A stretch of 32,075 nt of DNA from Pseudomonadota bacterium (lineage in GTDB: Bacteria > Pseudomonadota > Alphaproteobacteria > UBA9219 > RGZA01), in the NCBI GenBank assembly GCA_016195205.1, contig JACQAB010000066.1:1-32075 (forward strand), read 5' to 3'. The position numbers were made by a program, and so were the translations under genes. The notes under the pieces are model-generated. The model saw nothing but the letters and a program-made list of their open reading frames with translations, ran no database searches and was not told the DNA's origin. Positions 4,257-15,523 of this stretch are shown one piece after another; position 1 is the stretch's first letter; each line of letters opens with the position of its first letter.

Positions 4257-4486
4257 GCGATACTGTCAGACTTTCTAGAAATCTTCCGTCAGACTACTGG
4301 CAAAAGCTTAATAGTTTCTTATTTTTCAATAAGATGCTGTTCAAATGCCGGGCAGTTTTCTCAAGCTATTCCACGTCTTAATTTTCCGCACCGGGCGATC
4401 TTAATTTGTCATTAAGCTTAGCGCCCGATGATCGCGAACAATCTCCAGCAGCGGCCCCTTATATTGAGAAGGCAAGCAGCCGTCTC

Positions 4487-5374
4487 ATGTCTCTCCCCTC
4501 CCTATCTTTTTCCGACAACAATCACTGGCGGTTTGGCTGGGGCGATGGACTTTATAATTTTCAAAACCAGTATCGGCCGCTGTGGGTCACGTTCGGGCCG
4601 TGCCGCTATTTCCCCCAAACGTTTGACGTTGAAATCGCGGTGGCCGCCCGGAAAATTGCCGAAGCCGCCACGAAACCCATCTATGTTGCGATGAGCGGGG
4701 GTATCGATTCTGAACTCGTGGCGCGCACCATGCTGCAGGAACGCATCCCCTTTACCCCGCTCATTGCGCAATTCGAGAATGATTACAATAAAGACGATAT
4801 TGCCTATGCCCTCGATTTCTGCCGGCGGCATAACCTGACGCCGGAGATTGTAAAGCTCGACATTATTGCTTTTTTTAAAGACAGCATTCACACCCCCTAT
4901 ATCCTGGCCAACTGCGCCCACCTCATGCAGATGCATCTGATGCGGCACGCCGCCCGTCTGGGCGGCATGGCTGTCATCGCCGTCGGCGAGCAGCGCTATG
5001 CAATCGAAGATGGAAAGGTTTTTGTTCCGGTCCCCATCGAGCGCATTGCCGTGACCCATTTCATGCAGGCCGAAGGCGTAGAAGGCGTTTCGGCTTTTTA
5101 TTGCTACACCCCCGAGATGATGTTGAGCCTGCTGCGCGAGGCCAAGGCGCACGGCTTCGGTGAGGTAAGCGAATTCGCCCACAACATCAAGGAAGATATT
5201 TACCGCAAATTCTGGCCGGATTTATCGCCCCGGCCGAAATATTCCGGGTTTGAAAATGTTCTCGAGCATCGAAGAGCCGCCCAAAAAAAACTGCACAAGA
5301 AATATGGCCCGATGCTTATCAAATTTATGATCCCGCTTGATGAACTGGAACTTCAACTTTCCAAGGGGTTATAG
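4487..5374 (+). CDS. PP-loop ATP pyrophosphatase (adenine nucleotide alpha-hydrolase superfamily), specificity unknown
   Basis: SGGxDS PP-loop motif in KPIYVAMSGGIDSELVARTM. The ORF-track start at 4406 is a TTG; I prefer the first ATG at 4487 (MSLPSLSF...), but the start is uncertain. First gene after an AT-rich divergent intergenic region. Confidence 0.75.
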   Translation: MSLPSLSFSDNNHWRFGWGDGLYNFQNQYRPLWVTFGPCRYFPQTFDVEIAVAARKIAEAATKPIYVAMSGGIDSELVARTMLQERIPFTPLIAQFENDYNKDDIAYALDFCRRHNLTPEIVKLDIIAFFKDSIHTPYILANCAHLMQMHLMRHAARLGGMAVIAVGEQRYAIEDGKVFVPVPIERIAVTHFMQAEGVEGVSAFYCYTPEMMLSLLREAKAHGFGEVSEFAHNIKEDIYRKFWPDLSPRPKYSGFENVLEHRRAAQKKLHKKYGPMLIKFMIPLDELELQLSKGL

Positions 5375-5381
5375 TTACACC

Positions 5382-6413
5382 ATGGGCCTTCTTCTTCATC
5401 ACGGCATGGTCGGCGTCGACACTCTTCCCCTTAAGCCCATTTTTCCGCGGGTCTACCCCTTCACGCAAATGGTCAACCGCGTCCTGCTGGATCAGATTGA
5501 TCCTTTTCATTACACGCTTTGCTGCGAGCCCATCGCCGATATTCTTAAGCTTCCCTCCACCCGCAAAAGCTTCGGCGAAGTGGCGGAAGAACGCGCCCAT
5601 GAAATGAAGGCCTATGACGGGCCGCTCTACATTATGTACAGCGGCGGCGTCGACTCCTCCTCGGCGGTGGTGGCATTTCTAAGAACCTGGTCGCCCGAAG
5701 AACTGAAACGCGTTCATATCCTGGCCTCGCATCACAGCGTCAGCGAATTCCCCGAGCTCTGGAACGTCATCGTCGACAAATTCAAGGGACGCATTCTTCC
5801 CTCTTTCCGGCACATCGAATATTACTGCGACCGCGGCTATGTGGTCACCGGTGAGCATGGCGACCAGCTTTTCGGCTCGGACATCATCCGCAACATTTTC
5901 CACATGCATGGCGATGAAGCCATCCACCAGCCCTGGCAACAGGTCATGCCCGGCATCTATGCCAAGATTTTTCCGCCCGAGATCGTGGGCGGTTTCCTCA
6001 CCCGCTACGAACAAACGCTTAGCGCCTGCCCGTTCCCGATACGGACAAGCTTTGACTGGATCTGGTGGTTCAACTTCACCAACAAATGGCAGCACGTGAA
6101 ATACCGCCTGCTGTCCAATAAGCCCTGGCGCAATGCCAGGGAATCCTTCAAGAAGATCAAACATTTTTATGATACGCCGGGGTGGCAGCGCTGGAGCCTC
6201 GACAATCACGATAAAAAAATCGGCAAGCTCTACGAATCCTACAAACTGGCGGCCAAAGAATATATCGTTGGCGCAACCGGATTTTCCGATTACATTCGAA
6301 AGCCCAAGGTGGGTAGCCTGTTTCAGATCTGGCGCTGTACGGGCTTTTACGAAGCCACCGATACGTCGTTTAAACATCTTACCCGCGAAGAAGCCCTGGA
6401 GTATGTGCGATGA
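5382..6413 (+). CDS. Second, divergent PP-loop ATP pyrophosphatase, specificity unknown
   Basis: SGGxDS motif in GPLYIMYSGGVDSSSAVVAFL, preceded by a helix as in Asn-synthetase-C-like domains. Alternative starts at 5337 (TTG) and 5340 (ATG) would overlap the previous gene by 35-38 nt. The stop overlaps the next start (ATGA at 6410-6413). Confidence 0.75.
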   Translation: MGLLLHHGMVGVDTLPLKPIFPRVYPFTQMVNRVLLDQIDPFHYTLCCEPIADILKLPSTRKSFGEVAEERAHEMKAYDGPLYIMYSGGVDSSSAVVAFLRTWSPEELKRVHILASHHSVSEFPELWNVIVDKFKGRILPSFRHIEYYCDRGYVVTGEHGDQLFGSDIIRNIFHMHGDEAIHQPWQQVMPGIYAKIFPPEIVGGFLTRYEQTLSACPFPIRTSFDWIWWFNFTNKWQHVKYRLLSNKPWRNARESFKKIKHFYDTPGWQRWSLDNHDKKIGKLYESYKLAAKEYIVGATGFSDYIRKPKVGSLFQIWRCTGFYEATDTSFKHLTREEALEYVR

Positions 6414-7003
6414 GTGTTTGCATCTATCTTTTCCGCGAGCGCATCATCTACTGGACACCGCAAACGCTTTTTAACAAACCCGCCAGCGTGGGCAGGACAA
6501 AATGGTACATCATCAATGAGGCTGCGCCCATTCCCCTGAATGAAATGGTCCAGCGCGGCAACGTGGGCTATACCCAGCAGGAAGGCTTTTACACCGTGGA
6601 GGGCGACTCGCCCGCGGACTGGGACGAGCGCATCAATCTGGTCAAGAAAATCCAGATTATCGGCGGGCTGAACACCCTGGCGAACAACCACAAATCAAAA
6701 TACACCGACAATTCGCTGGGTCAGGCGCTGGCCGACATTCTGCTGCTGGATGAAATCCGCGAATACCGCCGTACCAACAGCCTGGAAAACTGCGCCATTA
6801 TCACGTCGCTGCTCGAAACCAGCGAAGCCCGGCTCACGCCCGACGCCCTGGTCACCAAATTATGGCTGCAATACGAGTCTTACCGCACCGTGATCGCCTA
6901 TTTAAACCACCTGGAATCCAGTGTCCGGCAATTGCTGAAAGACGACCATTTCGACAAGGCCAATGAACTGCTCGGCAGCGAGCTGGAGAAGCTGAGAACC
7001 TAG
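6410..7003 (+). CDS. Hypothetical protein, translationally coupled to the second PP-loop gene
   Basis: 197-aa ORF whose start overlaps the upstream stop (ATGA). The sequence is protein-like with no motif I recognise, and the C-terminal half looks helical. Confidence 0.6.
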   Translation: MSVCIYLFRERIIYWTPQTLFNKPASVGRTKWYIINEAAPIPLNEMVQRGNVGYTQQEGFYTVEGDSPADWDERINLVKKIQIIGGLNTLANNHKSKYTDNSLGQALADILLLDEIREYRRTNSLENCAIITSLLETSEARLTPDALVTKLWLQYESYRTVIAYLNHLESSVRQLLKDDHFDKANELLGSELEKLRT

Positions 7004-7125
7004 GGTCTGTCCTCATAAACAGCCGGAAAGACGCGAGCGTAAACAAAGGCCTACCCTATAAAGGAATTATCAATTTTTATGTCGCAAACATAGGCCTGGC
7101 CCCTGCTCCCGGGGCAGGAGGCAAA

Positions 7126-7806
7126 ATGGACGACCTAAGAATGAGCCAGAACACCCGCGCGCCCCAGCAAACCGAGGCGCAGAAAAAGTTCGGCGTCGAA
7201 TATTACCACCCGGGGCAGCAGGTCATCTCAGGTTCACGCGACGGCGATCTTTACACCTACACCACCTATATCGGCACGTATCTGGTGAACGTGGAAAAAG
7301 GCGACTGCGCCTATACCTACGACGGCAAGGGCATGGCGCATGTGCAGCCGGGCCCCTGCAAGATTCAGTCTACTCTTATCACCACCGTGATCCGCGGCTA
7401 TGCGCCGGCCCTGCGCTCGACCGCGGTGGGCCGCTCCACCTATCTGCCTTATGTGAATGGCTGCTCGACCCGCCAGGTGTTCACGCCCGACCGCATTGGC
7501 GATCCCACGCTTCAGCTGCTGCATATGCCGCCGCATAGCAGCGAACAGGTGCATCACATCCATTCCACCGCGCGGGTGGTGCATGTGCTGGAGGGGCGCG
7601 GGCGCTCGCTGGTCGGCATGGAGCAATGGGTGGAAAAGCAGGAGCTGGTGCCGGGAATGTCGATCATTCTGCATCCCATGTGCCCGCATCATTTTGAAAC
7701 GGACGATAATTCGCTGCTGGTGCTGCCGCTGCATATCTTCAGCTCGCCACCCGGCGGAACCGAATTCGACCATCCCATGTTCAACGGGACGCACCGGATT
7801 GGATAA
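7126..7806 (+). CDS. Cupin-fold metalloprotein (unknown function)
   Basis: 226 aa with SD AGGAGG 5 nt upstream of the ATG. Two-motif cupin signature: HHIHSTARVVHVLEGRG (HxH...E...G) and VPGMSIILHPMCPHHFET (PxG...H). Confidence 0.7.
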   Translation: MDDLRMSQNTRAPQQTEAQKKFGVEYYHPGQQVISGSRDGDLYTYTTYIGTYLVNVEKGDCAYTYDGKGMAHVQPGPCKIQSTLITTVIRGYAPALRSTAVGRSTYLPYVNGCSTRQVFTPDRIGDPTLQLLHMPPHSSEQVHHIHSTARVVHVLEGRGRSLVGMEQWVEKQELVPGMSIILHPMCPHHFETDDNSLLVLPLHIFSSPPGGTEFDHPMFNGTHRIG

Positions 7807-8131: not shown

Positions 8132-8569
8132 TTAGGATTTATACTTTAGGAGCTTAGCCCTGATGAAATGAGCCAGCGACAGCTTGCCGGGGCCGAAGCA
8201 CAGGAGGGTGGCCAGCAGCATCGCCCAGTAGAAATGCTCCATGTTGCTGTCATAGGTGAACTGGATGACGGCAACCATCGCCAGCATCGGCAGGGTGGCA
8301 AGTCGCGCTCCAAGTCCCAGCACCAGCAGCACCGGGCAAGCCAACTCGAAACTGGTGGCAAATAGCGCCGCAAGTGAAGGCGGCAGCAAGGGAACGTGAT
8401 ATTCTTCCTTGAAGAGATAGAGAGTGTTACCCCAATCCTCTATCTTCACCATGCCGGATTGCCAGAAAATCTTGGCCATCCATAGCCTTGCCGCCAAAAG
8501 AACGAGATTTCCCAATTCCTGCAACATGGCTAGGATGCGGGTGGCGGCTTTGACGCAGGCTGGATGCAT
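8132..8569 (-). CDS. DoxX family membrane protein
   Basis: Multi-TM protein with a DoxX-like sequence (LLAARLWMAKIFWQSGMVKI...ELACPVLLVLGLGARLATLPMLAMVAVIQF). The ORF-track start at 8623 lies upstream of the predicted ECF promoter's transcription start, so I prefer the ATG at 8569 (MHPACVKAATR...). Confidence 0.8.
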   Translation of the reverse strand: MHPACVKAATRILAMLQELGNLVLLAARLWMAKIFWQSGMVKIEDWGNTLYLFKEEYHVPLLPPSLAALFATSFELACPVLLVLGLGARLATLPMLAMVAVIQFTYDSNMEHFYWAMLLATLLCFGPGKLSLAHFIRAKLLKYKS

Positions 8570-8609: not shown

Positions 8610-8636
8610 TTCGGTTTAGGCATCGTTTTGGTTACA
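8610..8636 (-). promoter_or_regulatory. ECF (SigF/ECF16-like) promoter motif TGTAACC-N16-CGAA upstream of DoxX
   Basis: The minus strand reads aTGTAACCaaaacgatgcctaaacCGAAgg with an exact 16-nt spacer. It is one of three identical-architecture motifs in the window. Confidence 0.6.
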
Positions 8637-9199
8637 TGAATACGGAAAAGAACCCTTTAAATCCTGAAACCGGGAATGAACGGCTGGAAATCCTCATGTC
8701 TCTTGCTCTTGCGGGAGACAGAAAGGCCTATGAGCGGGTTTTGCGCCTTGTTAGCCAGCGGTTAACCGTTTTTCTTGGCCGGAAGCTCCCCGCCAAAGAC
8801 CGCGACGATGTGATGCAGGAGATTTTGCTTTCCATTCATAAGGCCCGCCATACCTACGATCCGGCCAGGCCGCTGATGCCCTGGGTTATGGCCATTGCCC
8901 GCTACCGGATGCATGACCATTGGCGGCGGCATTACGGCCATTCTTTCGATGAAATGGCCGATATTGAGGATTTAAAAAATATTTTGAGCACGGACATAAC
9001 CGAAACCCTTCATGGTAACGAAGATATAAGAAGGATACTTGTGACCTTGCCGGAGCGGCAGCAGGTAATCCTTGAATTGATGTACCGGCAGGACAAAAGC
9101 GTGCGGGAGGTTGCCAAACAGTTAAAAATGAGCGTTTCGGCGGTGAAAGTCGCGGCGCACCGGAGCTACAAGATTTTCCGCAAACATCTGAAAGCGTAG
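8636..9199 (+). CDS. ECF-type RNA polymerase sigma-70 factor (SigF/ECF16-like)
   Basis: 187 aa. Region 2 (DDVMQEILLSIHKARHTYDPARPLMPWVMAIARYRMHDHWRR) and region 4 HTH (LPERQQVILELMYRQDKSVREVAKQLKMSVSAVKVAAHRS). It is followed 5 nt later by a DUF1109-type anti-sigma. An alternative start exists at 8696. Confidence 0.85.
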   Translation: MNTEKNPLNPETGNERLEILMSLALAGDRKAYERVLRLVSQRLTVFLGRKLPAKDRDDVMQEILLSIHKARHTYDPARPLMPWVMAIARYRMHDHWRRHYGHSFDEMADIEDLKNILSTDITETLHGNEDIRRILVTLPERQQVILELMYRQDKSVREVAKQLKMSVSAVKVAAHRSYKIFRKHLKA

Positions 9200-9204
9200 A
9201 AGAA

Positions 9205-9843
9205 ATGTCGAAAACCGATGAAACCATAGGCAGTATTTTAGCTACGGCTACGCCGGTTAAAACAGCGCAGCCCATGCGCCTTTTGCTGGGCTGGCTTGCC
9301 GTGACGGTGGTGGGAACGTTTTTGATGGTGCTGTTCATGGCTCCCCGTGATGATCTTGCCCTGCAACTGGCCTCGCCATTGTTCCTTGCGGAAACAATTC
9401 TCTTGATAGCCCTGATTGTCACTTCGGCATTTGTCGCAGTCTGCCTCTGCTTTCCCGATATGTGTCAAAGGCATTGGATGCTTTATGCGCCGCTCCTGCC
9501 GCTGGCGGCTTATTCTGCGCTGCTCGGCTACCAACTCGTGCATCCGGAAATGGTGGCGCTGCCTGCCGTTAAGATGGGCGGCGTTGATTGCGCCTTATGC
9601 ATCAGCATGTTTGCCGTTATTCCGGGGTTCTGGATGTTTCATATCTTGCACCGCCATGCCACCACCCACCCGATCCTTGCCGGGGCCGTATCCCTGCTAA
9701 CAGCGTCGAGCATCGGGCACCTGGTGCTTAAATTCGTGGAAAAAAACGATGCTATCTCGCATCTGGCCTTATGGCATTTCCTGCCGATCTTGCTGCTGGC
9801 GGCTGTTGGCGCCTTTTTGGGCAGGAAATTTTTATCTTGGTAG
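9205..9843 (+). CDS. DUF1109 / NrsF-like membrane anti-sigma factor
   Basis: 212 aa with about six predicted TM segments and several Cys residues, sitting directly downstream of the ECF sigma. This is the standard partner arrangement of the SigF-NrsF type. Confidence 0.7.
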   Translation: MSKTDETIGSILATATPVKTAQPMRLLLGWLAVTVVGTFLMVLFMAPRDDLALQLASPLFLAETILLIALIVTSAFVAVCLCFPDMCQRHWMLYAPLLPLAAYSALLGYQLVHPEMVALPAVKMGGVDCALCISMFAVIPGFWMFHILHRHATTHPILAGAVSLLTASSIGHLVLKFVEKNDAISHLALWHFLPILLLAAVGAFLGRKFLSW

Positions 9844-9845
9844 CG

Positions 9846-9872
9846 TGTAACCGCTTTCTCTCAGGGCACGAA
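9846..9872 (+). promoter_or_regulatory. ECF promoter motif TGTAACC-N16-CGAA upstream of the precursor peptide gene
   Basis: cgTGTAACCgctttctctcagggcaCGAAtag with an exact 16-nt spacer. It lies about 60 nt upstream of the ATG at 9932. Confidence 0.65.
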
Positions 9873-9931
9873 TAGAAAATTATGCAGGCACTCTTCGCTT
9901 GCCGTTAACAACCATCCTCAAGGAGAAAATC

Positions 9932-10204
9932 ATGAATAAGACCGTTCTATGCGCCGCTTTGGCGGGGGTTTTGGCCGCTGGTATGGCCGGAAGCGCTTAT
10001 GCCGCCGACATGCCCAACAAGGAAAAATGTTACGGCATCGCCAAGGCAGGAAAAAATGACTGCAAATCCATGAGCGGCTCGCACTCCTGTGCCGGTCATT
10101 CCACGAAGAACTATGATCCGGGCGATTTCAAGGTGGTCAACAAAGGCCAGTGCGAAAAGCTGGGCGGCTCTCTGGCAGCCCCCGAAGCAGCTCCGGCTGA
10201 GTAA
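9932..10204 (+). CDS. DUF2282-type secreted 4-Cys precursor peptide (bufferin/GigA-like)
   Basis: 90 aa with SD AAGGAGA 5 nt upstream of the ATG at 9932 (the ORF track extends to a TTG at 9899). Signal peptide MNKTVLCAALAGVLAAGMAGSAYA, then EKCYGIAKAGKNDCKSMSGSHSCAGHS...NKGQCEKLGG, which matches the DUF2282 signature as I remember it. Confidence 0.85.
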   Translation: MNKTVLCAALAGVLAAGMAGSAYAADMPNKEKCYGIAKAGKNDCKSMSGSHSCAGHSTKNYDPGDFKVVNKGQCEKLGGSLAAPEAAPAE

Positions 10205-10217
10205 GGCTTTTGGAAGG

Positions 10218-10240
10218 GCATGGCCTGAACAGGGCCATGT
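10218..10240 (+). terminator. Hairpin between the precursor and MNIO genes (possible partial terminator or attenuator)
   Basis: GCATGGCC tgaacag GGCCATGt followed by ctttccggcttt. An 8-bp stem including one G-U pair; the U-tract is poor. Confidence 0.3.
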
Positions 10241-10255
10241 CTTTCCGGCTTTATC

Positions 10256-11122
10256 ATGAATCATTCTGCTTATCCTTATCTTGGCTTCGGGCTTGGCCTT
10301 CGCGCCCCGCATTATGAACAGGTTTTGCGCGAACAGCCTGATGTGGACTGGTTCGAGATCATCTCGGAAAATTTCATCGATGCCCATCAAGGCTATTGGG
10401 ATTATCTTGCCGATCTGCGCTGTGATTACCCGCTGGTGATGCATGGTGTTTCACTGTCCATCGGCAGCCCCGATCCATTGAACCAGGAATATCTGCGCAA
10501 ACTAAAAAAACTGGCGGATTTTATAAAACCGGCATGGCTTTCCGATCATCTTTGCTTCACCGGGCTGGGCGGCCATAACACCCACGATCTGTTGCCTTTG
10601 CCCTATACGCAGGAAGCCCTGCGCCATGTCATTGCGCGTGTGGACGAGGCGCAGGAGCGCCTTGGGCGCGTCATCGTACTTGAAAATCCCTCGACCTATT
10701 TTGAATACCGGCAATCCGAACTGGCGGAGTGGGATTTTTTGCGCGAGTTGGCGAAAGCCACCGGCTGCGGGATTTTGCTGGATGTGAACAATGTTTACGT
10801 CAGCGCCTTCAATCACGGTTTTGATCCGAAAACCTATATCGACGCCATTCCCGCCGAAGCCATCGCCCAAATCCATCTGGCCGGACACAAGAATAAGGGA
10901 ACGCATATCGTCGACACGCATGACGCGCCCGTGATTGAGGATGTATGGGGTTTATACGCCACCACCATCGCGCAAAAAGGCAGTATCAGCACGCTGATCG
11001 AGTGGGATGAAAATATCCCGCCGTTGGCAACCCTGCTTGCTGAAATGGAGAAGGCCCGCGCATTTATTCAAAACAAAACTCCCTCCAAACGCGCCCGTCA
11101 TGACTTACACGAATATGCTTGA
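10256..11122 (+). CDS. DUF692 family MNIO enzyme (MbnB/BufB-like)
   Basis: 288 aa. LGFGLGLRAPHYEQVL...VDWFEIISENF...LVMHGVSLSIGS...PAWLSDHLCFTG...VLENPSTY...LLDVNNVYVSAFNHGFD...IAQIHLAGH is the characteristic DUF692 TIM-barrel pattern. Confidence 0.9.
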   Translation: MNHSAYPYLGFGLGLRAPHYEQVLREQPDVDWFEIISENFIDAHQGYWDYLADLRCDYPLVMHGVSLSIGSPDPLNQEYLRKLKKLADFIKPAWLSDHLCFTGLGGHNTHDLLPLPYTQEALRHVIARVDEAQERLGRVIVLENPSTYFEYRQSELAEWDFLRELAKATGCGILLDVNNVYVSAFNHGFDPKTYIDAIPAEAIAQIHLAGHKNKGTHIVDTHDAPVIEDVWGLYATTIAQKGSISTLIEWDENIPPLATLLAEMEKARAFIQNKTPSKRARHDLHEYA

Positions 11123-11885
11123 GAAAGTGCAGGATTCCATCATCAGCGGCGATGCCGGGGTTGCGGCCCCGTTGGTGCGGCCAAACCCACGGCTTTCAGC
11201 CTCCGCGTTGCTTGGTATTTATATCGAAGGCTACCGGATAAGGCTTTCGCAGGCGGTGCGCTCCGATTATCCCTGTCTTGCCCATTATCTGGGTGAAGAG
11301 CGGATGAATGGGCTGGTTGCCGCCTATGTGAAAAAAACGCCTTCGTGTTCCTATAATCTCGATCACTACCCCTTCGCCTTCCGCCGTTTTGTCGCACAAG
11401 CTTGTGAGGATGAAGCCGCCCATGCGCTGGCGGAACTGGAAGGCGTGATGGCAGAAGTCTTTATGCTGCCGGAAAGCGCGCCGATGGATTTTGAAAGCTT
11501 TGGCAGCCTCGATGCCGAAAGCCTTGGCCGTATGAGCTTTGCATTACGTTCTGCCGGGATGCTCATCCGGCTTGCCTATGACGCGGAAGCTTATTTACAG
11601 GCCTACAAAAAGGGCGAAGCAGAAAAAGATATTCAGAAACGCCCGGCCCATCTCTACCTTTACCGGCACGATAACGAAGTGAAGCGGCAGCAACTTGAGA
11701 TAGCCGAATATCAGGTGTTAAGCGCCCTTGGCCACGGAGAAAGTTTCAGCGCCGCTATTGAAACGGCGCTGGCTTCGCACATTTACGCTGCCGCTGCCTT
11801 GGCAGAAAAAATCCGGTCGTGGCTGCCGAAATGGATCGGGCAGGGCTTCTTCGCCCATACGGAAAGGGTGAAAAAATCGGTGTAA
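11100..11885 (+). CDS. DUF2063 domain protein (MNIO partner, BufC-like)
   Basis: Follows and overlaps the DUF692 gene. N-terminal pattern LLGIYIEGYRIRLSQAVRSDYPCLAHYLGEERMNGLVAAYVKKTP fits DUF2063. The start is ambiguous (11100 or 11115); the track start at 11007 would overlap by 116 nt. Confidence 0.75.
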   Translation: MTYTNMLEKVQDSIISGDAGVAAPLVRPNPRLSASALLGIYIEGYRIRLSQAVRSDYPCLAHYLGEERMNGLVAAYVKKTPSCSYNLDHYPFAFRRFVAQACEDEAAHALAELEGVMAEVFMLPESAPMDFESFGSLDAESLGRMSFALRSAGMLIRLAYDAEAYLQAYKKGEAEKDIQKRPAHLYLYRHDNEVKRQQLEIAEYQVLSALGHGESFSAAIETALASHIYAAAALAEKIRSWLPKWIGQGFFAHTERVKKSV

Positions 11886-11907
11886 CCAAGCGGGCCGTGC
11901 CGCCGAA
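11881..11907 (+). promoter_or_regulatory. ECF promoter motif TGTAACC-N16-CGAA upstream of the small Cys ORF and mer-like genes
   Basis: gTGTAACCaagcgggccgtgccgcCGAAtaa with an exact 16-nt spacer. It overlaps the TAA stop of the DUF2063 gene. Confidence 0.6.
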
Positions 11908-11969: not shown

Positions 11970-12098
11970 ATGTCCATGATGTGCAAATCCGGCGCGTGCC
12001 GAGCCAAGAGTGGCCCCTGCATCCATGAAAAACTGATGCTGGCGATGATGGTTATAGCCATCCCGCTTTTAGGACATTTCGCGTTTCACTGGTTTTAA
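11970..12098 (+). CDS. 42-aa Cys-rich membrane-anchored peptide (hypothetical)
   Basis: SD AAGGGAGA upstream of the ATG at 11970. MSMMCKSGACRAKSGPCIHEKLMLAMMVIAIPLLGHFAFHWF has three N-terminal Cys plus one TM helix. The track ORF begins earlier at 11913 without an SD. Confidence 0.45.
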   Translation: MSMMCKSGACRAKSGPCIHEKLMLAMMVIAIPLLGHFAFHWF

Positions 12099-12110
12099 CA
12101 AAAATCCATC

Positions 12111-12461
12111 ATGACGCCGCAACTGGGTTGGAAGGAATCGCTTTTTGGAAGCGTATTGGCAGCCATAGGAGCTTCTCTATGCTGTGTCGCTCCTTTGGCG
12201 CTTCTGGCCGTGGGTATTAGCGGGGCCTGGATTGGTTCCCTGACGGCGTTTGAGCCTTACCGCCCCGTTTTCGTGGGCCTGACGCTGCTGTTTCTTGGTG
12301 TGGCTTTTCACAAGCTATATTTTGCGCCCAAAACTTGCGTTCCCGGTAGCCCTTGCGCCGACCCCCGCACCGCCAAGCGTCAGCGCCTGGTATTCTGGAT
12401 TGTAGCGCCGCTTTTGCTTGGTCTGCTCGCCGCGCCCTGGCTTGCCCCGTTATTTTATTGA
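12111..12461 (+). CDS. merT: MerT-like metal (mercuric ion) transport membrane protein
   Basis: 116 aa. A CC pair in the first TM (AAIGASLCCVAPLALLAVGISGAWIGSLTAFEPYRPVF) and a second Cys pair (KTCVPGSPC) line up closely with canonical MerT as I remember it. Confidence 0.85.
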   Translation: MTPQLGWKESLFGSVLAAIGASLCCVAPLALLAVGISGAWIGSLTAFEPYRPVFVGLTLLFLGVAFHKLYFAPKTCVPGSPCADPRTAKRQRLVFWIVAPLLLGLLAAPWLAPLFY

Positions 12462-12474
12462 AAGGAGAGACACC

Positions 12475-12753
12475 ATGCGCCGATTGTTGCTAACCATCAT
12501 GTTCGTTCTGCTATCTTTCGCCGCCAGCGCGGCGGTTCCGCAAACGCTTACCCTCGATGTGCAAAAAATGACTTGCCCTGTTTGTCCATTCACGGTTAGC
12601 GCAGCCCTTGAGAAAGTGCCCGGTGTAACGAAAGCAAATGTTGATTTTTGGGATAAAACCGCGACGGTGACTTTCGATCCTGATAAAACCAACGCCGAGG
12701 CCCTTATCAAGGCCACCACGGAGGCGGGGTATCCATCCTCGGTGAAGCCATAG
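12475..12753 (+). CDS. merP: MerP-like periplasmic heavy-metal-binding (HMA) protein
   Basis: SD AAAGGAGAG upstream of the ATG at 12475, signal peptide, MTCPVCPFTV metal-binding motif, and a C-terminal ATTEAGYPSSVKP nearly identical to the canonical MerP end. Confidence 0.85.
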   Translation: MRRLLLTIMFVLLSFAASAAVPQTLTLDVQKMTCPVCPFTVSAALEKVPGVTKANVDFWDKTATVTFDPDKTNAEALIKATTEAGYPSSVKP

Positions 12754-12771
12754 GAATTGTTCACAGAAAAA

Positions 12772-12999
12772 ATGTCTGTAAAATCCCAATCCACCATCAC
12801 CTGCCCGCATTGCGGCTACCAGAAAACGGAGATCATGCCGGTGGATAGCTGCCAGTTTTTCTATGATTGTCAGGGCTGTCAGGCCGTGCTGCGTCCCAAA
12901 CAGGGAGATTGCTGCGTGTTCTGCTCTTACGGTTCTGTGCCCTGCCCGCCGGTGCAGCAAGCCCGTGCTTTGGAAAGTAATGAGCGGGGCAAGCTATGA
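12772..12999 (+). CDS. GDCCVxC domain protein (small Cys-rich, mer-associated family)
   Basis: CPHCGY...[34 protein letters not shown] contains the GDCCVxC signature. The start is either ATG 12772 or TTG 12757. The stop overlaps the next start (ATGA at 12996-12999). Confidence 0.75.

Positions 13000-15447: not shown

Positions 15448-15523
<76 letters not shown>

Follow-up and report, generated by a model that had tools for sequence, protein, structure and literature searches.

Three exact SigF/ECF16-type promoter motifs at a Buf1-type bufferin cluster with an adjoining mer-like gene unit in an uncultured proteobacterium

Contig JACQAB010000066.1, from an uncultured member of the Pseudomonadota (32,075 nt, analysed over its full length and called the window below), carries a gene cluster in which an extracytoplasmic function (ECF) sigma factor of the SigF/ECF16 type and its putative anti-sigma factor NrsF are encoded amid three gene units, each preceded by one exact copy of the sequence TGTAACC-N16-CGAA. 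The first unit consists of doxX alone, the second of bufA, bufB and bufC, and the third of five genes starting with a small cysteine-rich open reading frame (ORF), here called sm42, which is followed by MerT- and MerP-like genes. By their domain content, doxX, sigF, nrsF, bufA, bufB and bufC are assigned to a Buf1-type bufferin cluster with SigF/NrsF regulators. This agrees with a survey of MNIO enzymes, in which Buf1 clusters combine an MNIO with a DUF2063 protein and frequently have DoxX and SigF/NrsF as accessories (PMC12452194), and a Buf1 cluster with SigF/NrsF has been described for Caulobacter (PMC11626156).

A scan of the whole window on both strands returned the motif three times, exactly where a sequence-only reading of this DNA had placed it (Table 1). 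With 11 fixed bases and two strands, 0.015 occurrences are expected (Poisson P of three or more, 6e-7), and none of 100 dinucleotide-preserving shuffles of the window contained a match; the background was gauged from these shuffles and from 1.8 Mb of related loci. The looser patterns GTAACC-N15-17-CGAA and GTAAC-N16-19-CGAA retrieved the same three sites and nothing further, and with two mismatches allowed six matches were obtained against 6.1 expected, the extra ones (at 6268, 14266 and 16636) being at chance level and located outside the cluster. Each site is oriented towards its adjacent downstream gene. The gap from the end of CGAA to the ATG measures 40 nt for doxX (8569), 59 nt for bufA (9932) and 62 nt for sm42 (11970), close to the about 40, 60 and 62 nt given earlier. 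At the third site, the -35 element includes the TAA stop codon (11883-11885) of the DUF2063 gene.

Table 1. Features of the bufferin cluster and the adjoining unit, in window coordinates
Feature	Position	Strand	Evidence and remarks
doxX (BufD-like), 145 aa	8132..8569	-	Pfam DoxX 58.6 bits; weak match to HvfX-family maturation protein of ribosomally synthesised and post-translationally modified peptides (RiPP)
P(doxX), predicted SigF/ECF16-type promoter	8610..8636	-	exact match; -35 TGTAACC 8636-8630, -10 CGAA 8613-8610
sigF, ECF sigma factor, SigF/ECF16 type, 187 aa	8636..9199	+	Pfam Sigma70_r2, Sigma70_r4_2
Decayed internal motif ATAACC-N17-CGAA in sigF, ~185 nt upstream of nrsF	8996..9022	+	homologue of the exact TGTAACC-N17-CGAA of relatives
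nrsF, six-helix membrane anti-sigma factor (DUF1109)	9205..9843	+	Pfam PF06532 NrsF 110.5 bits, full length
P(bufA), predicted SigF-type promoter	9846..9872	+	exact match
bufA, Buf1-type bufferin precursor (DUF2282)	9932..10204	+	Pfam DUF2282 82.5 bits; signal peptide, four core Cys
Strong hairpin between bufA and bufB	10210..10248	+	about -31 kcal/mol; fold z-score -5.75
bufB, MNIO enzyme (DUF692, MbnB/TglH/ChrH family)	10256..11122	+	Pfam 366 bits
bufC, DUF2063 partner protein, NGO1945_C-like C-terminal domain	11100..11885	+	Pfam DUF2063 51.9 bits
P3, predicted SigF-type promoter	11881..11907	+	exact match; bufC stop codon within -35
sm42, 42-aa Cys/His-rich single-helix membrane peptide	11970..12098	+	homologues L001, L149, L161
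MerT-like inner-membrane thiophilic-metal transporter	12111..12461	+	Pfam MerT 115.7 bits; NCBIfam MerT 116 bits, below equivalog cut-off 150
MerP-like periplasmic HMA-domain metal-binding protein	12475..12753	+	TIGR02052 MerP 112.7 bits, cut-off 92.55; Pfam HMA
GDCCVxC-domain Cys-rich protein	12757..12999	+	NF041374 105 bits
Exported DUF255 thioredoxin-like protein, C-terminal DsbD_N, 782 aa	12996..15344	+	Pfam Thioredox_DsbH 245.8 bits, DsbD_N 36.8 bits
tRNA-Lys	15448-15523	-	follows the DUF255 gene, opposite strand

The motif equals the sigmaF-binding sequence GTAACC-N16-CGAA reported for Caulobacter (Kohler et al. 2012, PMC3511200) and the ECF16 consensus of Staron et al., tGTAACc-N16-CGAA (quoted in PMC3420878), of which the window thus holds three exact copies; a third wording of the consensus is (T/C)GTAAC-N17-CGAA (PMC8315932). 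The promoter type put forward in the sequence-only reading is therefore the published one, and the gene which it had named as the sigma factor is upheld by the Pfam domains. The encoded protein is a group-4 sigma factor containing regions 2 and 4 only (TIGR02937 sigma70-ECF 75.8 bits, cut-off 42.9) and is 37-65% identical to the sigma factors of related loci, each of which is always followed by nrsF. In the window nrsF starts 6 nt past the sigF stop codon. Its product scores only 40.7 against a cut-off of 300 with the NCBIfam equivalog NF042994, and by this profile it is a distant member of the NrsF family. Two cysteines have been reported as conserved and functional in the characterised proteins NrsF, OsrA and AbcS (C129/C131 and C179/C181). 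The C129 equivalent is present in the window protein and kept in 96% of 56 relatives, and no cysteine was found near the second position (C179/C181) in the window NrsF or its clade, in an alignment without a characterised NrsF as anchor; in this clade an N-D-x3-H motif is conserved where the second cysteine would stand. Additional cysteines of the window NrsF lie at residues 80, 82, 87 and 132.

For comparison, two samples of related loci were scanned, one of 80 loci encoding BufB homologues taken from GTDB genomes (1.23 Mb) and one of 80 metagenomic sigF loci (0.56 Mb) retrieved with a SigF alignment. In the first sample the exact motif occurs six times, exclusively in four loci that encode NrsF or SigF-NrsF (L002-L005), and each of the six sites either immediately precedes bufA or stands on the opposite strand in the doxX-sigF interval. 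The 75 BufB loci that lack sigF-nrsF have no exact motif. In the fifth sigF-bearing BufB locus (L001), TGTAACT-N16-CGAA is present three times: one copy precedes an sm42 homologue, another precedes bufA, and the last sits on the bufC stop codon, ahead of doxX; this locus, from an uncultured alphaproteobacterial metagenome-assembled genome (MAG), and the metagenome contig L081 hold the best BufB matches (71%). In the second sample the motif precedes bufA, doxX, msrA, msrB-like genes and genes for Met-rich peptides, all of them known ECF16 target classes. When 74 unique sites selected with GTAAC[CT]-N16-CGAA were aligned, a T before GTAAC was present in 88% and a T past CGAA in 80%, with a T-rich stretch following the -35 element; at these positions, for which no selection was made, the window sites have the T before GTAACC in three of three cases and the T after CGAA in two of three. 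A Pantoea plasmid locus with sigF-nrsF (L166) has no motif under the pattern used, so that not all NrsF-linked sigma factors are covered by the consensus.

The positions of the sites are conserved as well. The minus-strand motif between the divergent doxX and sigF genes stands in the same place as in the window in L004, L005, L081, L083 and L116, and as a GTAACT variant in L003 and L112; the site after the nrsF stop and before bufA recurs in L002-L005, L081, L082, L112 and others; and a promoter motif on or just after the stop codon of bufC, or of a fused bufBC gene, is also found at L001:11591 and L161:14195-14170. The layout with three promoters is thereby repeated in two other genomes, L161 and L001, and the site positions are kept in distant relatives though the spacer sequences are unrelated. 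A motif that co-varies with the sigma factor and holds its position while spacers diverge behaves as expected of a cognate promoter. The earlier proposal that doxX, the RiPP operon and the mer-like operon are co-regulated is thus supported on the side of comparison, by the orthologous positions, by the absence from the 75 loci and by the layout in L161 and L001.

The sites also bear on the start of doxX, for which the ATG at 8569 had been preferred to the one at 8623. The ATG at 8623 falls within the 16-nt promoter spacer, upstream of any plausible transcription start. The predicted start lies between both ATGs, approximately 33 nt ahead of the one at 8569, which has the Shine-Dalgarno sequence AAGGGA in front of it. 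Read from 8569, the N-terminus is also colinear with its counterparts in L004 and L005, which themselves begin downstream of their promoters, and the corrected start at 8569 is thus supported. In the second unit, AAGGAG is found 7 nt before the bufA ATG, and BufA has a signal-peptide cleavage motif ...AYA/AD and its cysteines in EKCYG, NDCKS, HSCAG and GQCEK. The hairpin that follows bufA has a perfect 15-bp stem (17 pairs in the hairpin scan), and of five relatives examined, four (L081, L005, L161 and L001) also have a strong hairpin there, unrelated in sequence and in some cases with a U-run behind it; the window hairpin is probably an attenuator or stabiliser raising precursor over enzyme expression. 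In L161, bufB and bufC are fused into one gene (L161:14202-15851, minus strand) with a 549-aa product (MbnB_TglH_ChrH plus HvfC_N).

The genes of the third unit are tightly packed: the first three intergenic gaps measure 12, 13 and 3 nt, and the last two genes overlap by 4 nt. For sm42 neither Pfam nor NCBIfam gave a match and a word-index protein search was also empty. A full HMMER scan of 1.8 billion proteins delivered a family of 15 representative clusters (39-54 aa) with invariant M1, S2, C5, C10, G15, C17 and H19 (an M-S-x-M-C start), followed by one hydrophobic helix ending in GHxxFHWF, and in our judgement sm42 is a real family without existing annotation. All four copies with visible context, being L001:9304-9435, L149:11666-11794, L161:13994-14113 (minus strand) and the window copy, stand in sigF/buf loci, and two of the four have a SigF-type promoter of their own. 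Locus L161, which lends the third unit its best support and was found through a 65% identical DUF255 homologue, carries three exact sites: the first precedes a 51-aa Cys peptide and doxX, the second precedes bufA and the fused bufBC gene, and the third stands directly behind bufBC, ahead of a 39-aa sm42 homologue, an HMA/MerP-like gene, a GDCCVxC gene and a gene for a 125-aa membrane protein (CC-x2-P); its DUF255-DsbD_N gene is situated 4 kb from this equivalent cluster, beside a resistance-nodulation-division (RND) pump and an integrase. GDCCVxC homologues follow sm42 in both L149 and L161. In L149, sm42 and GDCCVxC lie between bufA and bufB within one long operon with a single site: GTAACT-N16-CGAA is followed, over L149:9704-14072, by an HMA protein, a 125-aa ORF, bufA, a 51-aa ORF, a CMD-family (AhpD-like) protein, an 84-aa ORF, sm42, GDCCVxC, bufB, bufC and doxX, so that accessory metal and redox genes are embedded in the bufferin cluster. 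A second family of Cys-rich membrane peptides, of about 51 aa (C-[SA]-T-G-A-C-G-x2-I-C-S-P-C, then a helix), has members at L161:17618-17773 (+) and L001:11680-11835 (+), in both cases with a SigF-type promoter on one side and doxX on the other; none is present in the window.

An obligate link of the DUF255 protein to this system was considered and rejected: homologues in Methylobacter (L162) and in a 'Rickettsiales' MAG (L163) have neither buf, mer or sigF neighbours nor a motif at the promoter position. Because of these unrelated neighbours, and because the closest relative, L081, has no third unit, we regard the third unit as an accessory recruited in some lineages. Between 11907 and the tRNA-Lys gene at 15448, Pfam and NCBIfam revealed no MerA or MerR, and therefore the unit is not a mercury-resistance operon; by analogy it would act like the uptake front end of a mer system. 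It may serve to take up or pass on a thiophilic metal and to keep thiols in the periplasm reduced. No counterpart of the unit was found in the literature searched.

The sequence-only reading had further stated that the sigma gene itself has no such motif, and indeed the plus strand showed none over the 350 nt that precede sigF in the window, L081, L082 or L161, even when as many as two mismatches were tolerated. Among 73 related loci with enough upstream sequence, the divergent minus-strand site is present in 51 and a plus-strand site in three, the Cupriavidus and Rhizobium plasmid loci having both. The sigma gene thus appears not to be positively autoregulated as far as its upstream sequence tells; the broader claim of no autoregulation is a reading from absence, and feedback on the operon may act through a one-mismatch copy inside sigF. 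All four characterised ECF16 systems are autoregulated (PMC3511200, PMC8315932, PMC4436054, PMC3420878), and positive autoregulation is a typical behaviour of the group, not a defining one. The sigF ATG directly abuts the divergent -35 element in the window (8630-8638, GGTTACATG) and likewise in L005 (2072-2080) and L083, and lies within 1-9 nt of it in L003 (8228-8239), L112, L081 and L004. No Shine-Dalgarno sequence precedes the sigF ATG, and a sigma-70 scan for a sigF promoter gave chance-level matches only, none of them upstream of sigF; a leaderless sigF mRNA is possible.

The copy inside sigF was compared across 58 sigF genes (57 from related loci and that of the window). In all of them the linker joining regions 2 and 4 includes a V/I-T-E motif, and 56 of these genes have an exact TGTAACC-N17-CGAA there (NNT GTA ACC GAA ... 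NNC GAA), about 200 nt upstream of nrsF, as at L004:8649-8675, L005:2417-2443 and L084:3398-3424; the two others are the window gene (ATA for GTA) and L101 (ACT and TAT). The Val of the motif is encoded by GTA in 57 of 57 genes, against a GTA share of 15% among their other Val codons. In 56 of 58 genes the codon before it has T as its third base, though encoding D, N, H, Y, P, A, G or F, and in 57 of 58 the codon in front of the second Glu has C at that place, though encoding Y, N, S, G or H; the Ser codons adjoining the motif vary freely. A coding constraint was ruled out as the explanation, given that synonymous and amino-acid-variable positions are fixed and neighbouring synonymous sites vary, and this codon pattern reflects selection on DNA, not on protein. 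The simplest reading is that the element is a candidate sigmaF-dependent promoter of nrsF, which would provide negative feedback without positive autoregulation. It reads GAAACC in L081 and AAAACC in L082 and is gone in L161; the window element looks like a decayed copy whose activity is uncertain. No description of an intragenic sigF promoter was found in the ECF16 literature searched.

We consider it highly probable that the three sites are SigF-type promoters. Starting from the identity and statistics of the motif, the identities of the genes and the conserved site positions in relatives, we infer the following course of events, including the sigma factor that reads the sites, the inducing signal, the points of transcription start and the function of the third unit. 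At rest, NrsF would hold the sigma factor at the membrane, as expected from its family membership. A periplasmic thiol-reactive signal, likely copper, another thiophilic metal or an oxidant, with copper the likeliest from the bufferin context, would release the sigma factor, which would then start transcription some 6-9 nt downstream of each CGAA, in line with the comparison to other systems. This would switch on doxX leftwards; bufA-bufB-bufC, for the production of a periplasmic copper-chelating bufferin, with the hairpin after bufA allowing the precursor mRNA to exceed the enzyme mRNA; and sm42, MerT-like, MerP, GDCCVxC and DUF255/DsbD_N as a module for thiophilic metals and thiol redox, for which the promoter on the bufC stop codon would restore transcription.

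Several points weigh against this interpretation. Promoter function and co-regulation are predicted from comparison, and sigF has neither a Shine-Dalgarno sequence nor a recognisable promoter, its ATG abutting the divergent -35 element. The window NrsF appears to lack the second sensor cysteine of NrsF/OsrA, and therefore the inducing signal may differ. Moreover, this genome is represented by one 32 kb MAG contig, so that paralogous ECF16 sigma factors may be encoded elsewhere, and the third unit could be served by read-through from P(bufA).

The last two points each lead to a distinct alternative. That a paralogous ECF16 sigma factor from another part of the genome reads some or all of the sites, themselves genuine ECF16-type promoters, so that the neighbouring sigma factor would not be in sole control, has a precedent in Bradyrhizobium, for whose ECF16 paralogues EcfF and EcfS cross-talk was suggested (PMC3420878), and the genome is seen here through a 32 kb contig; however, the motif tracks the adjacent sigF-nrsF pair across 160 loci, and several relatives have the divergent promoter and the sigF start codon physically interlocked, which makes such cross-talk very improbable. 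It is also unlikely that only the first two sites are active, with the third one dispensable, and that sm42-merTP-trx is transcribed mainly by read-through from P(bufA), leaving a regulon of two units. No terminator-like element lies between bufC and sm42, the L149 equivalents belong to one long operon behind a single site, and the closest relative does without any third unit, yet site 3 is an exact 11/11 match, a motif on or just after the bufC stop codon is kept in L001 and L161 despite different downstream genes, and the strong hairpin after bufA would cut read-through and thereby make an internal promoter useful. As for a by-product of chance, coding or composition without regulatory role, part of site 3 does lie in the last bufC codons and site 1 in an open frame (the longer doxX ORF call), but the frequency expected and the empty shuffles, the gene that each site faces at 40-62 nt, and the positions conserved in distant relatives with unrelated spacers reduce its probability to next to nothing: the window statistics and the related loci together effectively refute it.

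With the three sites taken as SigF-type promoters, the core of the locus is known biology, a new instance of an arrangement in which a Buf1 cluster and DoxX are under the control of an ECF16 SigF/NrsF pair. Its variant features are the three separately promoted units, the mer-like/sm42/GDCCVxC/DUF255 unit and the lack of an autoregulatory promoter, and what is new is limited to the third operon and to the sigma gene's apparent lack of self-activation. We tentatively propose, at slightly less than even chances, a joint scenario in which this clade lost positive autoregulation, most members have an intragenic nrsF promoter giving pure negative feedback that decayed in the window subclade, and the sigma factor recruited the sm42-MerT/MerP-GDCCVxC-DUF255 module. 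If true, bufferin production would be tied to the transport or redox handling of a thiophilic metal. SigF/NrsF control of bufferins is established in Caulobacter, and the window extends it to an uncultured proteobacterial lineage. The predicted regulon members sm42, MerT/MerP, GDCCVxC and DUF255-DsbD_N, which recur beside bufferin clusters elsewhere, could indicate partners of bufferins in the cell, and the locus deviates from the rule of ECF autoregulation, with a conserved intragenic candidate promoter for the anti-sigma gene in its relatives.

As to the genomic setting, G+C amounts to 51-54% from about 4 to 16 kb versus 56-65% in the flanks, and the low-G+C stretch ends at the tRNA-Lys gene, which is the only Rfam match between 7000 and 16000. 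The nearest homologues of the DUF255 protein (64-65%) include proteins of Methylococcaceae (Gammaproteobacteria), and the buf genes are closest to the alphaproteobacterial MAG L001. This G+C contrast and the mixed origins of homologues suggest a mosaic, horizontally acquired region. The stretch 4406-7806 holds three consecutive plus-strand ORFs (322, 358 and 197 aa), for which Pfam gave no family or just a sub-threshold Asn_synthase match, and then a gene for a 226-aa cupin protein just upstream of the doxX end of the cluster.

Among characterised systems, that of Caulobacter crescentus/vibrioides is the nearest. Its regulon comprises CC3254-3257 (buf1ABCD), CC2907-2905 (buf2) and CC2748 (PMC3511200, PMC11626156): CC3254-3257, encoding DUF2282, DUF692, DUF2063 and DoxX proteins, were shown to be SigF-dependent by Kohler et al. 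(2012), who used 5'RACE to map a transcription start that lies 61 nt ahead of the CC3254 (DUF2282) start codon (PMC3511200), and the regulation of buf1 and buf2 by SigF/NrsF was reported by Leprevost et al. (2024; PMC11626156). Caulobacter SigF-NrsF responds to copper and heavy-metal stress (PMC3511200, PMC11626156). Both systems share the ECF sigma factor with a DUF1109/NrsF partner, the GTAACC-N16-CGAA sequence, the DUF2282-DUF692-DUF2063 and DoxX targets and a bufA leader of about 60 nt. They differ in that doxX is the fourth gene of the buf1 operon in Caulobacter but divergent with its own promoter in the window, and in that Caulobacter sigF has an upstream sigmaF-type promoter, whereas the window has none within 350 nt with two mismatches allowed. 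In addition, Caulobacter lacks sm42 and the MerT/MerP/GDCCVxC/DUF255 unit, both present in the window, and C181 of its NrsF appears to have no counterpart in the window protein.

The systems SigF-NrsF/yedY1Z1-mrpX of Azospira suillum (PMC4436054), BcrS-AbcS/bcrXQP of Brucella melitensis (PMC8315932) and EcfF-OsrA of Bradyrhizobium japonicum (PMC3420878) have the same ECF16 consensus as the window. In these three, a sigmaF-dependent operon lies divergently and immediately upstream of sigF, as does doxX in the window and as seen in 51 of the 73 related loci. Instead of bufferin or mer-like genes, however, their targets are methionine sulfoxide reductases and Met-rich peptides, which protect against chlorine and oxygen species. 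They are autoregulated from a plus-strand promoter upstream of sigF, and the Cupriavidus and Rhizobium plasmids have the same promoter pair, whereas in the window its plus-strand member is missing.

The gold-induced genes (GIG) operons of Cupriavidus metallidurans and Legionella pneumophila reportedly contain the same DUF2282-DUF692-DUF2063-DoxX set and are induced by copper and gold; we know of no mer-like unit described for them. With the classical mer operons (Tn21/Tn501 merRTPAD) the window shares a MerT-family protein and MerP in the order T-P. Unlike these operons, it has no MerA, MerR or mer operator, control would be exerted by an ECF sigma factor, and its third unit adds sm42, GDCCVxC and DUF255/DsbD_N to the classical mer genes.

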